A DNA stretch of 59,560 bases. Source: a bacterium. GTDB taxonomy: Bacteria > Patescibacteriota > Minisyncoccia > Phycocordibacterales > UBA6899. The stretch covers positions 1 to 59,560 of the forward strand of contig JAJZQJ010000009.1 of NCBI GenBank assembly GCA_021851895.1. The letters are read 5' to 3'. The translations under genes were made by a program, and so were the position numbers. Within the stretch, counting starts at the first letter, position 1, and every line of letters starts with the position of its first letter. This document shows positions 1 to 59,406 of the stretch, piece after piece. The notes beneath the pieces are model-generated. The model saw nothing but the letters and a program-made list of their open reading frames with translations. It had not been told where the DNA came from and ran no database searches.

Positions 1-31
1 ACGAGACGGGAGTTCGATTCACCCTACCCGA
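1..31 (+). tRNA. tRNA 3' fragment (T-arm and acceptor 3' strand; truncated by window edge, isotype unknown)
   Basis: GGGAG-TTCGATT-CACCC T-arm followed by TACCCGA and a U-tailed hairpin; anticodon lies outside the window. Confidence 0.7.
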
Positions 32-74
32 ACAAAAAGAAAAACAGAGCGAAAGCCTCTGTTTTTCTTTTTGT
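32..74. terminator. Bidirectional intrinsic terminator after tRNA
   Basis: ACAAAAAGAAAAACAGAG-cgaaagc-CTCTGTTTTTCTTTTTGT inverted repeat. Confidence 0.8.
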
Positions 75-233
75 GCGGGTAGGGAGAATCGAACGGAAAG
101 GGGTCGGGAGAGGAGTACCTCTCCCGTCGAGGAGAGCAGGTGTTTCTTGTTTCACAAGAAACACCGTCGAGAACCGTGGGTTCTCGAAGAACTTTGCCGT
201 GCGGGTCCCTTTAGGGTGCGCGAGCAAAGTTCG
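75..233 (+). repeat. tRNA-associated structured element, copy A (antisense tRNA 3' end + conserved hairpins)
   Basis: Shares GGGTCGG..GAGGA..CCTCT.CCG..AGGAGAGCAG..CGTCGAGAACCGTGGGTTCTCGAA..CCCTTTAGGGTGCGCGAGC with 3520-3690 (-) and partly with 59188-59267. Confidence 0.85.
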
Positions 234-303
234 CGAGATATCTCCCCTTCGGATCCAAGCAAGGCTTGGATCCGAAGATTATTGAGTTGATAAATATGCA
301 TTT

Positions 304-714
304 TGTCCTTTATCCCCATTATCCACAGGTTTATTCACAGACATTATGTGGAAAAAACATCTCAGAACTAGCTAAGCAGGAAAATTTCCTTTAAATAAGC
401 CACCATACAATAAGACATTGTGGACAAGCCTGTGGATAACGTGGATAACTGTTCTTTAAAGACGCGAGAATAGTGTAAAAACACGGTTTCTTCAGGGATT
501 TTTGGCATTCATACACCACAGAGTGTCTTCATGAGATCGTGAAAGCGCCTTAATGTTCCCCTCCCCGCAAAATAATATGTCCTTTATCCCCAGTGTACAC
601 AGGTTTATCCACAGACAATATGTGGAGAAATTTGCTATTGCTATGAAATATGCTGAAAAAAGTACGTATCTTAGGGGTAAAATTCATGCAGGCTGTGGAA
701 AAGCATGTGGATAG
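304..714. promoter_or_regulatory. Probable replication origin (oriC), DnaA-box cluster
   Basis: Perfect boxes TTATCCACA 319-327 and 605-613, TGTGGATAA 431-439; near-consensus boxes at 310, 331, 347, 419, 440, 584, 621, 695, 706; ~50-bp imperfect direct repeat at 304 and 578; AT-rich. Confidence 0.75.
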
Positions 715-762
715 AGTGTATAAAGGACATCCTGAAACTTCCCCAGGCTTCTCCTTGAGCCA

Positions 763-1570
763 TGTTTCATGGGAAACATATTGGTATATACTAATTTTGA
801 TGCATGCTCGACTGAGAAATATTGATATCGGAACTATCGGTGAATCACTAGCTTCTCGCTACCTCAAGGAACATGGTTTTGATATTCTCTTAAGAAATTA
901 TGCAATTTCCGGTGTTGGAGAGATCGACATACTCGCATATAAGGATGAAACGTTGTATTTTGTCGAAGTCAAAACATCGGAAGATCGTGCTATTACGAGC
1001 GAATATCATGCAGTAGCGCATTTCGATGTCCAAAAAAAGAAAAACTCGCTCAAAACCATGAGAAAGTTCTGTTCATTAAAAGATGTGTCAATGAGGCGGA
1101 CACTAAGCTTACTTACCGTTTCATTTTCACGTGAAACATTGAAGGCACAGATACTGTTCGAGCCGTTTATTGTCATAGACACTATATGATAGCATTCTGT
1201 CCTGTTTCACGCGAAACATTGTATCGTACTGAATTCATGTGCAAGTTACGTAGGAACACCATATGTTACACGTGGAACTTTGCCATTCTTATGCTGGCTA
1301 AGCCCTTTGAGCATACTGTGCTGTCGTCACAATGTATATGTTTATGGGCGTAGTGTGTTTCACGTGAAATTTGCAACTATTCTATGTTTAATATGTTTTG
1401 TTCGCGTATCCTCCGATTGGCTAAGATCCATTGTCTTGCGGTATGTAACTTCGCGCCGGCTTTTACTGAATATGATCATATTGATTTGTTAATTGAAAAC
1501 CTCACGTTATTCCTTGGGTACACGCAGTTGTGTCAATTTTGTTGGGAGGGGGCGGATTTCACGTGAAACG
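763..1570. promoter_or_regulatory. parS site cluster (ParB/Spo0J binding)
   Basis: Near-matches to TGTTTCACGTGAAACA at 763-778, 1123-1138, 1203-1218, 1264-1279, 1356-1371, 1555-1570. Confidence 0.75.
800..1189 (+). CDS. yraN: YraN family (UPF0102) endonuclease-like protein
   Basis: GTIGESLASRYLKEHGFDILLRNY...GEIDILAYKDETLYFVEVKT; ATG 800 preferred over the upstream in-frame start inside oriC. Confidence 0.85.
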   Translation: MHARLRNIDIGTIGESLASRYLKEHGFDILLRNYAISGVGEIDILAYKDETLYFVEVKTSEDRAITSEYHAVAHFDVQKKKNSLKTMRKFCSLKDVSMRRTLSLLTVSFSRETLKAQILFEPFIVIDTI

Positions 1571-1695
1571 GTGTGGGAATATAGACTTGTAACTACGTAA
1601 CATTGTTTCTTTATCTGTTATTTAAATAATATGTCTTTTATTTTACTTCCATACTGAGCGTGGTATAATGGGTATGTCCTATAGAAAAGCTATAT

Positions 1696-2025
1696 ATGTC
1701 ACATCACCCATTACTCATTGTCAAGGCACGTCATGTCGTTAGGCATTCGCATCTTTCGAATGTTGATAAGCAGCTTATGTACGAGCGCATCCCTTTTCTT
1801 GACCTTGGAATGTTGGCACTTTTCATTGATTCTGCTGAGGAAAATCCGTTTGCTCTCGATGCGATCGTTTCAAGCATGAAGAAAAAGCTTGATGCGCGCG
1901 GCAATCTCCATCGGCTCCACGAAATACTCGAGACCGAGGCAAAGGAGATCGAGGCAAGGGACAGCGAAGATACAGATGAGACAAAGGTTGAAAGTGAAGA
2001 TGAGTCTAAGCTTGTAGCACACTAA
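1696..2025 (+). CDS. Hypothetical protein
   Basis: 109-aa ORF downstream of TGGTATAAT; acidic C-terminus. Confidence 0.65.
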   Translation: MSHHPLLIVKARHVVRHSHLSNVDKQLMYERIPFLDLGMLALFIDSAEENPFALDAIVSSMKKKLDARGNLHRLHEILETEAKEIEARDSEDTDETKVESEDESKLVAH

Positions 2026-2036
2026 CTAATAGCACC

Positions 2037-3005
2037 ATGAGAGAGCAATTTCACAAACCACAAGATGAGTTTGTCGCCGCTTACGGTGGAGACGAGGGTG
2101 TAGCGTTTGAGCCGACTGCGCCGCAGGGGGAGCAGGAGGGCGGTTATGAAGGAGAGGTGGGTGGCAAAGAATCAGAGGCTCAAGCGTTTCTTGAGCGCCA
2201 TTCAAGCGAGGAGCGCAAATTGGCTGAAGATATAGTCGGTGCCATAGAGGGTATTTCGAATCAACTTGAGTCGGAACATATAGTCTCTCGTGAGATGGCG
2301 GCCGAGTCTATGATCGCAACGGCATTTGCTGCTGCGCCTACTTCGGGAGTAGAGGATGGCGAGACTTCTTTGTGGAAGTCTGTATTGCGCGGCGCATCAT
2401 TGGGTGCTCGTAATGCGGTAAAAGCCGTTGCGCTCACTTCGATGATGTCTGCTTCGCCAGCTTTTGCTCAGGATTATATGCATCCGAGCCCCCAGATTCA
2501 AAAGAAAGTCGATTATCTTTTTGGAAAGAACATATTCGAGCGATTTGCAAATAAACGCGCATCATATAAGGAAGCATATACGCAGCTTGAAATGCATAAG
2601 GAGGAGGTACAGCATCGAATCGACGAGCTGAATGATCCTCGCCCGAGAAGCACTGCGGAGGAGGCACACATCAAACGTGTTGAAGCCGATAGGGATGCGA
2701 AACTTGCCGCGCTGAGAGTGGAGCGCACTTTAGAGAAGGCAGCATTTGAAGATCTTCATACGAACGATCCGACAGAGCGCGCCGAATATGATGCGAGGAT
2801 CGCTGCAATCGCTGCGCGTGAGGCAAGGGTCGTCGAAGATTGTGAGGCGCTACTTCTTGCAGAACATCGCAAGGCTGCCCCTCAGCAAGAGCTTCAAGAT
2901 CTCTATCGTGAGATCGTGCGCATTGAGAGGGAAGAGAACGAACTTGTCCGAAGGTTTTATGCACTGAAGCGTAGTGCTTATGGTTCGTACTGGTCTCGTT
3001 GGTGA
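2037..3005 (+). CDS. Hypothetical coiled-coil protein
   Basis: 322-aa ORF, acidic N-terminus, internal hydrophobic segment, helical C-terminus; followed by terminator hairpin. Confidence 0.7.
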   Translation: MREQFHKPQDEFVAAYGGDEGVAFEPTAPQGEQEGGYEGEVGGKESEAQAFLERHSSEERKLAEDIVGAIEGISNQLESEHIVSREMAAESMIATAFAAAPTSGVEDGETSLWKSVLRGASLGARNAVKAVALTSMMSASPAFAQDYMHPSPQIQKKVDYLFGKNIFERFANKRASYKEAYTQLEMHKEEVQHRIDELNDPRPRSTAEEAHIKRVEADRDAKLAALRVERTLEKAAFEDLHTNDPTERAEYDARIAAIAAREARVVEDCEALLLAEHRKAAPQQELQDLYREIVRIEREENELVRRFYALKRSAYGSYWSRW

Positions 3006-3049
3006 TGAGTAATAAAAAATAACAGAGCAATCGTGCTCTGTTATTTTTT

Positions 3050-3385
3050 TTATTTTTCATCGTCGGTATATTCAAGAAAAAGTCTTTCTTCGAATCCTCC
3101 GCGTTTCTCTCGCTTCGATCGCTTCTTCTCCATGAGAGCATTCGTGTCAATGTGATGATGCGCAACGATCGCATCTACGATCTCAAGTAGATCAGAGATC
3201 TCGTTGATCATGTCGTCATTCGATTTTGCTTCGAGCAACTCCATTGCCTCTTCGACGATCTTTTGCTTAAGCGCGAGGGCGAATTGTTCATCACTCAGTA
3301 CAGAGATCTTTGGTGTCGCATTGTCTGCGATGATGATATCAGGTATTTTGTCTCTGATGAGTTTATTGTAGGTGATGCGTGCCAT
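3050..3385 (-). CDS. MazG-like nucleoside triphosphate pyrophosphohydrolase (phosphoribosyl-ATP pyrophosphohydrolase-like family)
   Basis: YNKLIRDKIPDII...KIVEEAMEL...EISDLLE...KREKRGGF. Confidence 0.85.
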   Translation of the reverse strand: MARITYNKLIRDKIPDIIIADNATPKISVLSDEQFALALKQKIVEEAMELLEAKSNDDMINEISDLLEIVDAIVAHHHIDTNALMEKKRSKREKRGGFEERLFLEYTDDEK

Positions 3386-3519
3386 GAGATCATTGTAACA
3401 TGGAGAGAGGGAAGGTGAGTGCATCTTAGATATAAAAATTTGATAGCGTAAAAACAATTCCGGGAAATCGAGCAAACATTTGAACGCGCACTCCTGAGGA
3501 GCTCATTCAAAAAAGAAGA

Positions 3520-3690
3520 GCCGGGAAATCGAACAACCTTCGGCTCGCGCACCCTAAAGGGTCCCGCGCGGTCGAAGGTTTCGAGAACCCACGGTTCTCG
3601 ACGCTCGAGGACTCGCTGCTCTCCTTCACGGAAGAGGACGGTGTCCTCTTCCGACCCATCTCCTGTTCGAATCCCGGCACGCCGACAAAA
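3520..3690 (-). repeat. tRNA-associated structured element, copy B
   Basis: Bounded by GCCGGGAAATCGAACA (3520-3535) and TGTTCGAATCCCGGC (3664-3678); same core as copy A. Confidence 0.85.
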
Positions 3691-3727
3691 AAAGAAAAAC
3701 CTCTTTGCAGAGGTTTTTCTTTTTTTG

Positions 3728-3800
3728 TCGGGGCGCCGGGATTCGAACCCGGAGTCATCCGCTCCCAAAGCGGACATGTTAGCCGTTACACCACGCCCCG
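3728..3800 (-). tRNA. tRNA-Pro(TGG)
   Basis: Reverse complement CGGGGCGTGGTGTAACGGCTAACATGTCCGCTTTGGGAGCGGATGACTCCGGGTTCGAATCCCGGCGCCCCGA folds as a cloverleaf; CCA not encoded. Confidence 0.95.
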
Positions 3801-3953
3801 AATTTTCGAGACCACTTCTGGTCGCGTTTTTGCATAGTAGCATAGTTTCCAAAAAATGCCAGCCCTCCCAAGTTTGCTTGTGCCCATTTTGAAATGCAGT
3901 ACTATTGAGTCATACTCCATGAACTCAAGTGAGCGACATGGAACACAAATATC

Positions 3954-4583
3954 ATGAACGATGTACAGAGAAAAAAGCATGCCGCAGATGTCCTGCGAAA
4001 GCTCAAGAAACTATTTCCGCATGCAAGGATGTTTTTGAATTACACGACCCCTTTTGAACTTCTTGTCGCAGTGATGCTCTCTGCGCAGTGTACTGATAAG
4101 AAGGTGAATGAGGTGACGCCGGAGCTCTTTCGCCGATTTAAGACCATAGATGATTATGCGCAAGCACCAATACGAGAACTTGAGCGACTCGTCTATCAAA
4201 CCGGTTTTTATCGAGCGAAGGCGAAGCATATAAAAGAGGCAGCTATCGTGATAAGGGACGAATATGGAGGAGTGCTCCCAAGGACAATGCGCGAGATGGT
4301 TTCCATTCCTGGTGTTGGAAGGAAGACCGCGAACGTCGTACTCGGAAATGCATACGGAGTAAGTGAGGGCATAGCGGTCGATACGCATGTGCGACGGCTT
4401 GCAGGTGTTCTCGGACTCTCAAAGGAAAAGGCCATCCCTGCGATCGAGCGTGACCTTATGAAACTTTTCCCAAAGAAAGAGTGGTTCAGGCTGACGTATT
4501 ATCTTATCGAGTACGGTAGAAATTATTGCCCTGCAAAAAAGCATGATCATTCGAAGTGCCCACTAGGGCATAGTGCCAGCTAA
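3954..4583 (+). CDS. nth: Endonuclease III
   Basis: PFELLVAVMLSAQCTD, HhH motif IPGVGRKTANVVL, VDTHV. Confidence 0.95.
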   Translation: MNDVQRKKHAADVLRKLKKLFPHARMFLNYTTPFELLVAVMLSAQCTDKKVNEVTPELFRRFKTIDDYAQAPIRELERLVYQTGFYRAKAKHIKEAAIVIRDEYGGVLPRTMREMVSIPGVGRKTANVVLGNAYGVSEGIAVDTHVRRLAGVLGLSKEKAIPAIERDLMKLFPKKEWFRLTYYLIEYGRNYCPAKKHDHSKCPLGHSAS

Positions 4584-4856
4584 TGCAATTAAATTGCATA
4601 TGTGAGCAATTATCGTTTTACTGTTTCAGGTAAATGCGGTTTGTGAAACAAGTTTTACAGAGAAAAAACACGATATTTTGAAAATAAAATCACTTAACAC
4701 TCAAATTTAGAAGAAATTTTCAGCAGAAATGTGTTGTGAAACATATCTGGGGCGCTGTGGCGGGGTGTACAATGTTTCACGAGAGACTAGTCACTTATAA
4801 AAAATAGGAGAAATAGAAAAACGCGAGCATGCTCGCGTTTTCAATATGATGATTCG

Positions 4857-5237
4857 CTACTGCTGGCGACTTAAGATCTGGTCGCCTTTGCGGTCGAGAA
4901 TACCCTTGAAAATGTTCTCTTTCTGGAGCCCCATGAATATAATAATGGGAATGATGACTTGCCTCGACTGCGGATGGGTATAGATGTAATTCAACCCGCT
5001 GCAAAGAGGGCACTTTATCGAGCACGTCGGTAGCTCTGACGGATGCCAGCAGTCAACGAGGTTGCCCGTCTTCGAGCTGTGCCCATAGTGGTCTTGGATG
5101 AATTCCGAGTTGCCGAGCGAGAAGTCACTGAGACAGTGTGTACACATGATCATGGTCTCGCGCGCCCGCTTGAGTTTCTCTTCTGGAGTAATCGTGTCGC
5201 GCGCATTTTCGCGCGAGTTATCGAGCTGAGTATCCAT
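4857..5237 (-). CDS. Hypothetical protein, possible Zn-ribbon
   Basis: Two CxxC pairs (CTHC, CPLC); start uncertain. Confidence 0.5.
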   Translation of the reverse strand: MDTQLDNSRENARDTITPEEKLKRARETMIMCTHCLSDFSLGNSEFIQDHYGHSSKTGNLVDCWHPSELPTCSIKCPLCSGLNYIYTHPQSRQVIIPIIIFMGLQKENIFKGILDRKGDQILSRQQ

Positions 5238-5369
5238 TTCAATCCTTATTGAGCAATATATCTGAAACGAAACTAACATACTGAACGGGAGCGTCAATAA
5301 AATCATCCATTGCAAAATTCGTGATTTTTGTTAGTATGGCTTTACTCTCATCATCGATCGAGCATTCAT

Positions 5370-5440
5370 GCGGGTGTAGTTTAGTGGTAAAACTCCTGCC
5401 TTCCAAGCAGGTGTCGGGGGTTCGATTCCCCCTGCCCGCA
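5370..5440 (+). tRNA. tRNA-Gly(TCC)
   Basis: GCGGGTGTAGTTTAGTGGTAAAACTCCTGCCTTCCAAGCAGGTGTCGGGGGTTCGATTCCCCCTGCCCGCA cloverleaf. Confidence 0.95.
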
Positions 5441-5480
5441 CAAAGTCAAAAAATCTGCGTAAGCAGATTTTTTGTTACTT

Positions 5481-5790
5481 GTACGAGGCAGGGGGAATCG
5501 AACCGGCCACAGACGGGCACCCTCGCTCGCGCGTCTCCGCGCAGCGCAGGGTCGTCGAAGCGGGCTCGCGAGCACTTTGTTTTCTGTCGCGCGAAGCGCG
5601 TCAGAAAACTTAGTGACTCGTGAGTTCGATTCCTGTTTCTTGTTCTGTGCGCGAAGCGCTCAAATTGATCAGAGCTCAGTTCATGACAATTCTTGCCGTG
5701 AGCACTTAGTCGCAGCAAGATGAAGCTGACGCGAAACTTAGAAACTCGTGACCGATTCCTCAAATCCGATTTAGCGTGCGAAGCACTCAA
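5481..5790 (+). repeat. tRNA-Gly-associated element (antisense tRNA 3' end, GCGAAGC mini-hairpins, internal degenerate tandem unit)
   Basis: GGCAGGGGGAATCGAACC 5487-5504 is antisense to the tRNA; GTTCGATTCC 5624-5633; unit GAGCACTT..AAACTTAG..ACTCGTGA..CGATTCCT at 5570-5634 and 5700-5760. Confidence 0.7.
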
Positions 5791-5879
5791 TGAAATAAAA
5801 ATACAAAGTATTTTTATTTCCCCTTTCTTCAGACTAATTTTATATTTTCCTTTCGCTCATTTCATGACATACTTTATCC

Positions 5880-6203
5880 ATGTCTACCCAGCACTCCACT
5901 GCCTCCTATCTTCTTCAGCTTTTTGGTACCGATCGCTTCTCCACTCGTGCCATGTTCGGTGAGTACGCATTGTATTGTGATAGTAAAGTTGTCGCACTAA
6001 TTTGTGATGATCTTCTCTTTGTGAAAATACTTCCTCAGAGCAGTGGGCTTGAATCCATCTGTGAAAAAGGTGAACCCTATCCTGGCGCACTGCCGCACTA
6101 CCTCGTTGAAGAACCGCAGTGGAAATCCATCGATGGTCTTCGCGAAATGCTGATCGATATTGCAGAAGTGCTTCCACAGAAAAAACCTAAGAAGAAAAAA
6201 TAA
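5880..6203 (+). CDS. TfoX/Sxy N-terminal domain protein
   Basis: RAMFGEYALYCDSKVVALICDDLLFVK...PYPGA. Confidence 0.85.
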   Translation: MSTQHSTASYLLQLFGTDRFSTRAMFGEYALYCDSKVVALICDDLLFVKILPQSSGLESICEKGEPYPGALPHYLVEEPQWKSIDGLREMLIDIAEVLPQKKPKKKK

Positions 6204-59187: not shown

Positions 59188-59267
59188 GAAAGGGGTCGGG
59201 AAAACAACTGTTTTCCCGCGAAGGAAGGCAGCGAGTCTTCGAGCGTCGGAAAACCGTGGGTTTTCGA
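59188..59267 (+). repeat. Structured element, copy C (partial, no adjacent tRNA)
   Basis: GAAAGGGGTCGGGAAAACAACTGTTTTCCCG..GCAGCGAGTCTTCGAGCGTCGGAAAACCGTGGGTTTTCGA matches copies A and B with compensatory changes. Confidence 0.8.
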
Positions 59268-59406
59268 GGAGTAAATATTTCTCAGTGTTTCATTGTGTGG
59301 GGTATGTGAAATGCAAATTGATTCCTTCGCTGTTTCATGGTGTTCATTACCTGACTGCGAAAAATCCAAAACGAAAGTATGGGATCGGCTATGCTATACT
59401 TTTGTC

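Follow-up and report, generated by a model that had tools for sequence, protein, structure and literature searches.

At the three tRNA genes near the start of the window (the whole 59,560-nt stretch of DNA analysed), the 3' ends are followed by units that, with about an even chance of our being right, belong to a family of small non-coding mobile elements in which a variable arm pairs with the integration site and the interrupted gene end is regenerated. This suggests an undescribed kind of mobile DNA whose target is found by base pairing; no description of the element was found in the literature or in Rfam. The layout is common to 34 of the 46 tRNA genes and the tmRNA gene of this 1.1-Mb genome. 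Behind the gene end come, in this order, a terminator-like palindrome, an antisense copy of the gene's own T-loop-to-3' end, a scaffold of 130-230 nt and a sense repeat of the tRNA end, with the protein-less insert amounting to about 150-250 bases. At the 34 tRNAs the antisense copies lie at +22 to +97, and some tRNAs carry tandem units. The features of the window are listed in Table 1.

Table 1. Positions of the element features in the window (X, target; X', its sense repeat beyond the scaffold).
Locus	Feature	Position	Strand	Basis or remark
1	Target X, 3' part of tRNA-Gly(GCC)	1..33	+	cut by contig start
1	Palindrome, A-run/GC hairpin/T-run	34..72	.	sequence; fold of 12-94
1	Antisense copy ('guide') of tRNA-Gly(GCC) positions 53-74	73..94	+	reverse complement of 12-33
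1	B-type scaffold	95..238	+	alignment A1, covariation, model R1 match, fold
1	Partial sense repeat X', T-loop-like segment and T-stem 3' strand	239..248	+	alignment, fold
2	tRNA-Pro(TGG)	3727..3800	-	ARAGORN; Rfam tRNA 64.4 bits
2	A-run/hairpin/T-run palindrome between tRNA-Pro and antisense copy	3687..3726	.	sequence, fold
2	Antisense copy of tRNA-Pro 3' end	3665..3686	- (tRNA's own strand)	2 mismatches
2	B-type scaffold, short H2	3536..3664	-	row of alignment A1
2	X', sense T-loop-like copy and tRNA-Pro T-stem 3' strand	3519..3535	-	GTTCGATT at 3534; alignment A1
2	Second-unit remnant: partial H4-like hairpin, further T-loop-like/T-stem copy	3440..3518	-	read from sequence
3	tRNA-Gly(TCC)	5370..5441	+	ARAGORN; Rfam tRNA 71.6 bits
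3	Palindromic intrinsic-terminator-like hairpin	5442..5480	.	terminator scan flags 5447-5474 (+); fold
3	Antisense copy of tRNA-Gly(TCC) 3' end	5481..5504	+	1 mismatch and 1-nt insertion near acceptor end
3	C/z-type scaffold	5505..5620	+	BLAST family map
3	Partial X', sense T-loop copy and start of T-stem 3' strand	5621..5635	+	GTTCGATT at 5624
3	Further partial unit (z-like domain ~5700-5760) and 'tail' module	5636..5822	+	read from sequence
	B-type core away from any tRNA	59188..59273	+	model R1, 77.1 bits

The first-pass annotation of the window had described antisense copies behind all three tRNAs, and these were confirmed. At locus 1, positions 12-49 and 57-94 are reverse complements over 38 bp with 2 mismatches. 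The tRNA segment there covers the variable region, T-arm, acceptor 3' strand and discriminator of tRNA-Gly(GCC) and was not called by ARAGORN because the gene is truncated. Compared with the intact tRNA-Gly(GCC) found where contig C1 ends, it has 2 mismatches. Both mismatches of the fold-back fall in this truncated copy, while the antisense arm, which runs from the base after the discriminator through the discriminator, acceptor 3' strand, T-stem 3' strand and T-loop to G53, matches the intact gene perfectly. The antisense copy after tRNA-Pro comprises, on the plus strand, 22 nt of the tRNA from G53 through the base past the discriminator. That after tRNA-Gly(TCC) has a bulge pattern that recurs in other A/C/D-type copies. 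In both of these tRNAs the target X reaches from the T-loop to the 3' end, and the reported second sense T-loop copies (GTTCGATT) were found 120 nt (5624, plus strand) and 131 nt (3534, minus strand) past the antisense copies. A terminator had been claimed after each tRNA; a simple scan flagged the tRNA-Gly(TCC) hairpin but not the other two, which are A-run/hairpin/T-run palindromes. The one at locus 1 is terminator-like in both directions and forms the apex of the long fold-back. Folding of the tRNA 3' part together with palindrome and antisense copy (12-94; 3663-3749 on the minus strand; 5418-5504) gave -57 (z -13.1), -69.1 (z -12.9) and -59.6 kcal/mol (z -11.0), and 0 of 200 shuffles folded as well at each locus.

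Each antisense tract had been proposed to be specific for its own tRNA, and the genome-wide counts bear this out. Antisense 12-mers of tRNA positions 61-72 were searched within 130 nt downstream. The tRNA's own 12-mer was found exactly in 7 of 44 cases, with at most one mismatch in 18 and with at most two in 27, compared with 1, 9 and 38 of 1979 for the 12-mers of other tRNAs and 0/44 for reversed-only controls.

That a structured element follows the antisense tract was likewise upheld. In the scaffold at locus 1, hairpins H1, H2 (variable), H3 (with an invariant GAACC-GTG-GGTTC top) and H4 were recognized, and the region 73-250 folds at -85.8 kcal/mol (z -6.1), with the partial sense repeat pairing with 81-89 to give helix P1, which closes the scaffold. 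The conserved core is about 88 nt long, and model R1 matched the core regions of locus 1 (96-193, 75.6 bits) and locus 2 (3575-3662, 66.6 bits). Among 23 B-type copies, 96.6% of the cells were paired versus 84.2% in shuffles, and both sides had changed in 23 of 39 base pairs, a value reached by none of 500 shuffles. G-U cells outnumbered A-C cells both in the B-type scaffold (60 vs 13) and in the 23-pair consensus fold of the z domain (25 vs 3), the latter built from related copies in an alignment that excludes the copy at 5505..5620. Therefore, the folding strand is the tRNA-sense strand. The locus 3 scaffold consists of a 5' domain and a 3' domain with an ACTTWG / CTTWGTGA internal loop, and the tail module beyond it, which ends with an A-run/hairpin/T-run, closes arrays at other tRNAs too.

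The layout is also present in relatives, and the check proposed in the first-pass annotation, a look at further tRNA loci of this genome and of related ones, thereby gave a positive result. It was found at 33 of 41 tRNAs in the sister species, at tRNA-Gly/Arg in three others (one congener and two members of a second genus of the family), and at tRNA-Gly in one species from another family of the order. Comparison of orthologous sites gave one clean filled/empty pair, between species: around tRNA-Thr(GGT) the flanks are conserved, and the site is filled here but empty in the sister species. This pair shows insertion of about 190 nt between direct repeats (22 nt exact, 27 nt with 1 mismatch) that run from the T-loop to 5 nt beyond the tRNA. 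Against the mobile-element reading, we saw neither an excised form nor a circle junction, nor any filled/empty polymorphism among strains. The first-pass annotation had set the loci apart from integrase insertions, whose att duplications are direct repeats; in fact, a direct repeat of the tRNA end is present at the far side of the scaffold and, together with the filled/empty pair, gives an attL/attR-like signature. Its proposal of a miniature element targeting tRNA ends holds. Furthermore, the scaffolds turn over at fixed tRNAs: at Ala(TGC), Asp and Gly(TCC), among others, the two species carry different scaffold types behind the same tRNA, terminator and antisense copy.

The core is patchily distributed across Patescibacteria, as is typical of mobile DNA. 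It was present in 12 of 151 genomes of a phylum sample, with 18 copies in this genome and 1-7 in the other core-bearing ones. For 55 cores from other Patescibacteria, the 28 nt bordering the core on its left were looked for in reverse complement, with matches upstream in 29, downstream in 20 and on both sides in 17; three controls gave 1/1/0, 1/0/0 and 0.55/2.25/0.05 in the same order, and 26 of the 55 had no upstream complement at the threshold used. Contrary to the earlier assumption, the targets were not restricted to tRNAs: core and own-target complement also occur at other gene ends and at translational GTPase codons, namely those for AHID(A/H)GK (P-loop) in EF-G/LepA-type genes, where the first ~20 codons are duplicated. 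At protein genes the core occurs in either orientation relative to its target. This favours DNA over RNA as the pairing partner and leaves the earlier suggestion of a read-through anti-tRNA hairpin affecting 3' processing unsupported. Differences between the duplicated ends are mostly synonymous (synonymous/non-synonymous 11/4, 11/2 and 9/3 at L124, L060 and L084), which a fresh, neutrally decaying duplication would not predict and which fits transfer from relatives or some selection on the second copy; this counts against the mobile-element reading.

Some of these observations could also be explained by host small-RNA genes, i.e., a structured RNA released from the tRNA's own transcript and acting in tRNA maturation, quality control or regulation. 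Since the closing helix, formed by the antisense and distal sense copies, imitates the acceptor/T-arm minihelix of the neighbouring tRNA, the RNA could be a substrate for RNase P, RNase Z and the CCA-adding enzyme. The folding of the tRNA-sense strand, the terminator-bearing tail module that ends arrays on the same strand and the conservation of the core, with covariation, over phylum-level distances agree with this. So does the antisense copy, which at 4 of the 7 positions where the tRNA differs between species changes along with it, a point that also fits the mobile element. We nevertheless consider it unlikely in view of the patchy distribution, the different scaffolds and the filled/empty site in sister species, and the cores on either strand of protein-gene ends. 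In addition, the minihelix is frequently incomplete, with a distal sense copy of often just 6-10 nt, and a terminator-like hairpin separates tRNA and element, leaving no room for a promoter. Finally, the arm is complementary to the 3' strand: at the G3:U70 pair of tRNA-Ala it has A, whereas G would be expected if it had been copied from the 5' strand.

The palindromes themselves could be by-products of fold-back (snap-back) DNA synthesis that grow out from terminator hairpins, the scaffolds being unrelated repeats that landed there. In line with this, many tRNAs have an unbroken palindrome that spans trailer, terminator and antisense copy; tRNA-Pro(GGG) on contig C13 and a second unit at tRNA-Glu(CTC) have a palindrome without scaffold; and the outer palindrome arms vary between loci and species yet stay complementary. 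However, copying by fold-back, as put forward in the first-pass annotation, cannot be the general route because at protein-gene targets, and likewise at tRNA-Thr(GGT) inside its operon, the spacer is non-palindromic and the complement abuts the core all the same. The end of the complement is fixed at G53/T54 and joined to the same core end phylum-wide, and the A/C/D-type copies, with their family-specific bulged A and discriminator mismatch, are not plain copies. This explanation therefore appears improbable.

Equally doubtful is a REPIN/RAYT-type or IS200/IS605-type system, in which the single Y1 (HUH) transposase of the genome would move hairpin elements as single strands. IS200/IS605 elements, as known from IS608, recognize their target by base pairing of an internal guide beside a hairpin and move as single-stranded circles, and one RAYT-like Y1 gene is indeed present (C4:41003-41689; 73.2 bits with the NCBIfam model for REP-associated tyrosine transposases, cut-off 80), flanked by two palindromes that are absent elsewhere in the genome. 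These palindromes are not the tRNA-linked elements, however, and the sister genome, 98% complete and rich in elements, yielded no Y1 gene. Y1 genes are not enriched in core-bearing genomes (6/11 vs 64/139 others), and the B-core motif was absent from all six other Y1 loci examined, one of which (L043) had a single match to a short A/C/D-type 5' motif. In addition, IS200/IS605 elements are not known to make a target duplication. None of the enzymes suggested earlier as partners (reverse transcriptase, HUH/RAYT, integrase) could be tied to the element; the genome has only one Xer-like tyrosine recombinase, and no TnpB-type domain was found in it.

It is very improbable that the tract is the primer-binding site of a retroelement primed by the tRNA 3' end, as in LTR elements: its ~18-22 nt correspond to the same tRNA part as in retroviruses, but this genome (99.7% complete) has no RVT_1 domain, the tract matches the genomic trailer (TTG), and the TGG expected from a mature CCA end only where the genome encodes CCA, and protein-gene targets share the same grammar. 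Assembly or amplification chimeras, to which inverted junctions typical of displacement amplification and the frequent contig breaks at element loci might point, are for practical purposes refuted by independent genomes, from several species and families, that carry the elements, a separate assembly (Logan) that spans both window loci with 0 differences, compensatory scaffold changes, and imperfect copies at a constant position.

For a mobile element that recognizes its target by pairing, the unit, read on the strand of the tRNA, would consist of a replacement copy of the target end (T-loop to 3' end plus trailer/terminator), a variable arm (~13-38 nt) carrying the target site X in reverse complement, the conserved structured scaffold and, past it, the displaced original target end X'. 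Entry would take place at the first T-loop base of tRNA and tmRNA genes and leave the gene intact, so that the element would be tolerated at essential single-copy genes. We infer that the complementary arm functions in targeting, and catalysis would fall to an enzyme of the host or one acting in trans. As one half of a hairpin folded from a single strand, the arm could help to mimic a duplex target, similar to CTX-phage attP and integron attC. Alternatively, it could pair with an exposed target strand and serve as a guide or splint, for which the elements of the IS200/IS605 family, with their own 4-nt guides, provide a likeness.

Each of the three tRNA genes in the window was found to be followed by an antisense copy of its own 3' end, in agreement with the first-pass annotation. 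For tRNA-Gly(GCC), the claimed pairing of 12-49 with 57-94 was confirmed (38 bp, 2 mismatches); both mismatches sit on the tRNA side, and the antisense arm complements the tRNA-Gly(GCC) gene of contig C1 of the same genome perfectly. The last 22 nt of tRNA-Pro recur on the plus strand at 3665-3686 with 2 mismatches, and 5481-5504 complements the end of tRNA-Gly(TCC) with one mismatch and a one-base insertion. The sense T-loop copies said to close the Pro and Gly elements were located at 3534 (minus strand) and 5624 (plus strand), respectively. Single-strand folding of the three fold-backs gave -57, -69.1, and -59.6 kcal/mol (z = -13.1, -12.9, and -11.0). The hairpin after each tRNA had been read as a terminator as well; a simple scan flagged the one after tRNA-Gly(TCC) and left the other two unflagged.

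tRNA genes in the window
Gene	Position	Strand	Basis or remark
tRNA-Pro(TGG)	3727-3800	-	ARAGORN
tRNA-Gly(TCC)	5370-5441	+	ARAGORN
tRNA-Gly(GCC), 3' part, cut by contig start	first 33 bases of window		2-base difference from intact gene at end of contig C1

DnaA-box-like 9-mers (TTATCCACA and close variants, on both strands) are clustered at window positions 280-730, directly after the tRNA-Gly(GCC) element, and such boxes also lie behind tRNA-Gly in three other genomes of the order (loci L005, L008, and L011); the window cluster is probably the replication origin. A palindromic motif, GTTTCACGTGAAAC with its variants, recurs between genes (window 1124-1570 and 4620-4790; contig C1 at about 640-680) and may represent either a binding site or a further small repeat.

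The genome under study consists of 1,101,061 bases in 16 contigs, one of which is the window (C16), and is estimated to be 99.7% complete; ARAGORN predicted 46 tRNAs and one tmRNA. When the check was extended to the whole genome by local alignment, the antisense copies held up: the last ~20 nt of 34 of the 46 tRNAs recur in antisense orientation, starting 22-97 nt downstream. The own-target test used the antisense 12-mer of tRNA positions 61-72 within 130 nt, with the shared T-loop excluded. Among 44 tRNAs, the own 12-mer was found exactly in 7, with at most 1 mismatch in 18, and with at most 2 mismatches in 27, while the 12-mers of other tRNAs, used as a control, gave 1, 9, and 38 matches out of 1979 at the same thresholds, and the reversed 12-mers 0 out of 44. 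The layout at the tmRNA gene was identical to that at the tRNAs.

Read on the tRNA strand, a unit starts on the gene side with the tRNA up to the T-loop, the T-stem 3' strand, the acceptor 3' strand, the discriminator, and the trailer; these are followed by a palindrome (A-run, hairpin, T-run), the antisense copy, a scaffold of about 130-230 nt, and a sense repeat. The antisense copy has a constant end, the complement of G53/T54, and the distal sense repeat comprises the T-loop and the T-stem 3' strand or, in some units, the whole 3' end. Behind some sense repeats there is a second terminator, or even a second antisense copy. Units also occur in tandem, e.g., at Arg(GCG), Lys(CTT), Val(TAC), and Trp, and a common tail module with a terminator closes the arrays. 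BLAST separated the B-type scaffolds from a mosaic A/C/D group; altogether, the genome holds 48 merged scaffold regions, nearly all beside tRNAs. Element loci contain or adjoin at least eight contig ends, and many of the contig breaks seen at tRNA genes of these metagenome-assembled genomes are explained by the elements.

Several loci deserve separate mention. Two tRNA-like genes missed by ARAGORN (C4:21990-22085 and C13:61100-61180), one with a long insert before the T-arm and the other with a TCCGATT T-loop, each precede a complete element with its own antisense and sense copies; the ARAGORN list of the genome is otherwise without a tRNA-Asn. The arrangement at tRNA-Ile(GAT) (C9:3738-4200) differs from that at other tRNAs, as two direct repeats of its own 3' half (22/22 and 14 matches) lie downstream inside tRNA-like stretches, with no antisense copy. 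Beyond the tail module that closes the Asp(GTC) and Leu(GAG) arrays, we observed tandem ~44-nt repeats, each a small A-run, hairpin, and T-run unit (AAACCGGAACGGTTTTTGG...), at about 1400-1650 of contig C10 and about 54750-54900 of contig C15.

In the sister species (G002), the layout was present at 33 of 41 tRNAs, and at no more than 2 mismatches the own 12-mers matched in 26 of 41 cases versus 38 of 1638 for those of other tRNAs. It was further seen at tRNA-Gly/Arg in three more species, one of the same genus and two from another genus of the family, and at tRNA-Gly in one species from another family of the order. A separate Logan assembly of the sole DNA run with the window stretch spanned both complete window loci without any differences; as this run may be the source sample, the agreement tests the assembler and not the biology. 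Two RNA runs of the same study contributed nothing on the window stretch and have no bearing on expression.

Filled and empty versions of orthologous sites, a comparison that the first-pass annotation had proposed, were found at tRNA-Thr(GGT), which carries an element in the genome under study and is followed by a plain spacer to the next tRNA in G002. This was the one clean pair between the two genomes. Within the conserved Thr-Thr-Met cluster, the filled site has about 190 extra nt. A direct repeat flanks this addition and spans from the T-loop to 5 nt beyond the tRNA; its length is 22 nt at full identity, or 27 nt if one mismatch is allowed. Gln(TTG) and Met are, like Thr(GGT), filled in one of the two species alone, and because their flanks have been rearranged between the genomes, these pairs give no element boundaries. 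Many orthologous tRNAs, among them Ala(TGC), Asp, Met, Lys(TTT), and Gly(TCC), have kept their terminator and antisense copy and differ in scaffold type between the two species. An ancestral convergent tRNA pair with one disrupted member was rejected as an explanation, since no reverse complement of the tRNA 5' half was found beyond the scaffold. Thus described, the elements are small gene-less inserts with a conserved fold, a complement of their own site beside that fold, and a duplicate of the interrupted gene end, and we consider it very probable that they are inserted mobile units. As a separate observation, the gene after the Asp(GTC) array (contig C10) lies behind the Met array in the sister species (contig C2 of G002, locus L019), which suggests rearrangement through recombination between element arrays at different tRNAs.

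To the alignment of 23 B-type copies RNAalifold assigned 42 pairs, 24 of which show compensatory changes. In a 39-pair structure, 96.6% of the cells were paired, compared to 84.2% in shuffles, and 23 pairs were altered on both sides, which was matched by 0 of 500 shuffles; slid controls brought the paired share down to 33-57%. G-U cells numbered 60 versus 13 A-C cells in the B-type alignment, and 43 versus 3 in the internal helices only, where two conserved G-U positions dominate. For the A/C/D group, whose scaffolds were analyzed less fully than the B type, the z-type 3' domain showed 25 G-U versus 3 A-C (12 sequences). Judged from these alignments, the scaffold has a conserved fold on the tRNA-sense strand. 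An Rfam 15 scan of window 1-6200 with E-values up to 1 returned nothing but tRNA above the gathering score, with no scaffold model and no HEARO/omega-RNA or group II match; the sub-threshold matches were weak microRNA-like or sRNA models, merely reflecting long hairpins. The main rival to our reading is that the scaffold performs a host small-RNA function. Such a function is compatible with mobility, and we regard it as unlikely.

A bulged A and a discriminator mismatch are common to the antisense arms of the A/C/D-type elements, while B-type arms are mostly perfect. The arm's base at the tRNA-Ala G3:U70 pair is A, as expected of a complement of the 3' strand; had the 5' strand been copied, it would be G. 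The tract as a 5'-strand copy of the tRNA, i.e., a minihelix gene, was rejected because this A complements U70.

In species-representative genomes, an exact 23-nt motif from hairpin H3 of the B type was present in more than 116 stretches. Among the 80 matches listed, 75 titles name Patescibacteria lineages (Saccharibacteria, Paceibacterota, Kaiser-, Nomura-, Staskawicz-, Yonath-, and Magasanikbacteria, and others), four name no phylum, and one, an uncultured gammaproteobacterial MAG, names another phylum. Viral contigs gave 0 exact matches to this 23-nt core motif. An exact 18-nt z-domain motif was found in the genome under study only, among 301 sampled genomes, which points to a pattern that is too strict and not to absence of the family. 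A covariance model of the B-type core (R1; 88 positions, 47 sequences) detected the core in 12 of 151 genomes in an even sample of the phylum that included the genome under study, with 18 copies in the latter and 1-7 in the other positive genomes. These phylum-wide counts rest on the listed part of the exact-motif stretches (more than 116) and on one covariance model with strict filters. The family is patchy over the phylum and has expanded onto nearly all tRNA genes in this genus. R1 also identified a B-type core at window 59188-59273 (77.1 bits) with no tRNA adjoining.

In 80 fetched loci containing 81 matches, 33 matches have a tRNA or tmRNA on their own strand no more than 350 nt upstream, 2 lie near an opposite-strand tRNA, and 46 lie elsewhere. 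The distant tRNA sites show the full layout again, with the junction at the start of the T-loop. For the 55 copies with a placeable 5' edge, the 28 nt left of the core had their reverse complement upstream in 29, just downstream in 20, and on both sides in 17. The corresponding counts were 1/1/0 for reversed and 1/0/0 for complemented controls, and 0.55/2.25/0.05 when arms were swapped among loci (mean of 20 permutations). Outside tRNA genes, the targets included, in several lineages, the AHID(A/H)GK codons of EF-G- and LepA-type genes; in addition, a membrane-protein gene was targeted at its 3' end and a glycyl-tRNA synthetase gene at its 5' end. At such protein-gene targets a duplicate of the gene end lies on the far side of the core. 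Since the core occurs on either strand relative to these genes, the pairing partner of the arm must be DNA. We infer, with slightly better than even confidence, that the arm acts in targeting.

Duplicated gene ends contained 8 identical, 11 synonymous, and 4 non-synonymous codons in locus L124, 6, 11, and 2 in L060, and 8, 9, and 3 in L084 (8, 10, and 3 with a fixed frame); the frame was the best of six, which somewhat favors synonymy, and the non-synonymous changes are mostly at the junction. In the direct-repeat scan, alignments with about 45-50% differences were mostly noise, and only those abutting an element were used. The mostly synonymous divergence would fit elements arriving with a relative's copy of the gene end, and selection on the second copy would be compatible with it as well. 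In L060, L077, and L124, public Patescibacteria contigs of three distant lineages, the EF-G N-terminus has a truncated second copy with the same altered junction (..IIAPIV, not ..IIAHID), so the first ~12 nt after the core may be element and not duplicated target. Annotation pipelines will misread the pseudo-N-termini and pseudo-tRNA ends to which the elements give rise.

No protein gene was found in or near the elements, and candidate enzymes were sought in the genome under study. It has no RVT_1 domain and no match to PF07282 (TnpB Zn-ribbon/TNB), the domain to which the search for TnpB-type proteins was limited. Its one Xer-like tyrosine recombinase scored best as Xer (XerD, 246.6 bits) and reached 136.6 bits with the integron integrase model (cut-off 265); an integron integrase was not found in this genome. 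One large serine recombinase (556-aa frame, C13:44980-46600) lies beside and convergent with tRNA-Ser(CGA), one of the few element-free tRNAs, and may mark the edge of a conventional integrated element. The single RAYT-like gene of the Y1 (HUH tyrosine transposase) family, at C4:41003-41689 (L040:1456-2142), has the palindrome AAAATGGGGTCNGACCCCATTTT on either side, a sequence found nowhere else in the genome. Y1 genes were present in 23 of 31 genomes of the order and in 71 of 151 of the phylum sample. A mobilizing role for Y1/RAYT is unsupported: no Y1 gene was found in the element-rich sister genome G002 (33 of 41 tRNAs), Y1 was not enriched in the other core-positive genomes (6 of 11) versus core-negative ones (64 of 139), and none of 6 other Y1 loci had the B-core motif, L043 having one match to a short A/C/D-type 5' motif. 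From the genes examined, no partner enzyme can be named.

By analogy, two routes could lead to such elements. The first would be a recombination site formed by a folded hairpin, as in CTX phage and integron cassettes, which would leave the order target arm, loop, inverted arm, cargo, and second target arm. In the second, the arm would be an internal guide, as in IS200/IS605. By either route, the duplication would be an element-borne or repair-made replacement of the gene end. Our whole reading, mobile non-coding inserts with an arm used in targeting, stands in our judgment at an even balance. A more tentative idea, which we find rather doubtful, is that a programmable homing element without a protein gene of its own has the ~88-nt core as its active part. 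The 13-38-nt arm would pair with a single-stranded target, the core would join the element to the target by nucleic-acid catalysis or through a recruited universal host enzyme, repair synthesis would regenerate the gene end, and a changed arm would give a new target. A programmable core would explain how one scaffold family sits on nearly every tRNA gene, the tmRNA gene, and conserved GTPase codons.

If the reading is true, a class of minimal mobile DNA has so far gone unnoticed in the Patescibacteria, bacteria with tiny genomes that were supposed to hold few mobile elements. The targets are the most conserved sequences of the cell, i.e., tRNA T-loops, the tmRNA gene, and P-loop codons of translation GTPases, and the targeted genes are unharmed because the element restores the gene end. 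A complement of the own target beside a conserved fold is the hallmark of base-pair-programmed targeting, yet the elements encode no protein partner. Once the partner or the chemistry is identified, a new way of guiding DNA insertion could thus come to light.

Among known systems, an LTR-type primer-binding site or retroelement was rejected, as RVT_1 is absent and the tract complements the genomic trailer, where such a system would need a complement to the mature tRNA 3' end with its CCA. REP/REPIN sequences are short extragenic hairpin repeats with a RAYT, of fixed sequence and without complementarity to their neighbors. The elements resemble them as short hairpin repeats often downstream of genes, and the genome has a single-copy Y1 gene with flanking palindromes; however, the palindrome flanking the RAYT gene occurs only twice and is not shared with the elements.

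Integrase-driven tRNA/tmRNA islands and prophages, as well as CIMEs, which derive from them and lack an integrase, insert in the segment from the T-loop to the 3' end, and an element-borne copy restores the gene. Similarly, the elements have the tRNA 3' segment directly repeated at both ends, an intact tRNA after insertion, and tandem accretion. In contrast to islands, the units are gene-less and 150-250 bp long, each has an internal complement of its own att segment, a single scaffold family covers dozens of different tRNAs, and the core is also found at protein-gene sites. Moreover, islands have a cognate tyrosine or serine integrase, in cis or on a related element, that is dedicated to the one att site, whereas here one Xer-like and one large serine recombinase face about 35 target tRNAs.

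In CTX-phage attP(+) (XerCD) and integron attC, an element-borne inverted repeat folds so that a hairpin stands in for the duplex site, and after integration one arm lies in the target junction with its inverted partner just inside the element. The arm order, the tandem arrays of small cassettes, and the unpaired stem bases (here in A/C/D-type copies) agree with this. The targets differ, comprising about 35 tRNAs, tmRNA, and GTPase codons, and because these are many different sequences, a sequence-specific recombinase cannot explain target choice. Unlike in attC, the cargo is a conserved structured scaffold and not a gene, and the hairpin arms are tRNA sequence and not R/L boxes (GTTRRRY core). 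Xer-exploiting IMEX of the CTX type integrate at the chromosome dimer resolution site dif, whereas the elements target tRNA/tmRNA T-loops and protein-gene codons.

Elements of the IS200/IS605 family (IS608/ISDra2) have strand-specific hairpin-based ends and pair the target, over 4-5 nt, with a short internal sequence by the hairpin foot; they show high site specificity, insert on the 3' side of a 4-5-nt target, produce no target duplication, and have protein-less derivatives. The elements likewise fold on one strand (G-U >> A-C), and their target complement abuts hairpin H1. However, their pairing covers 13-38 nt, they have a target direct repeat (22-27 bp up to at least 55 bp flanking the inserts) and a regenerated gene end, neither of which IS200/IS605 make, and they show no co-occurrence with a Y1 transposase and no PF07282 (TnpB) match in the genome. 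No common short motif was found among the targets.

Guide-bearing elements include group II introns (EBS/IBS), IscB/TnpB omega-RNAs, and IS110 bridge RNAs, and type V-K CRISPR transposons home to tRNA genes. As in these, the insertion site is matched by a variable segment that adjoins a conserved structured RNA, and the order of a variable arm at the 5' end and then a scaffold (about 90-200 nt) recalls the IscB-type omega-RNA. In contrast, the elements have no protein gene in or near them and no Rfam match, and each adjoins an intact copy of its own target, with a gene-end duplication coming along. Every known family considered fails at least one testable defining feature, and the titles and abstract openings covered by a literature search contained no description of this tRNA-end architecture. 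We file the elements as a new form within the site-specific non-autonomous insertion elements.
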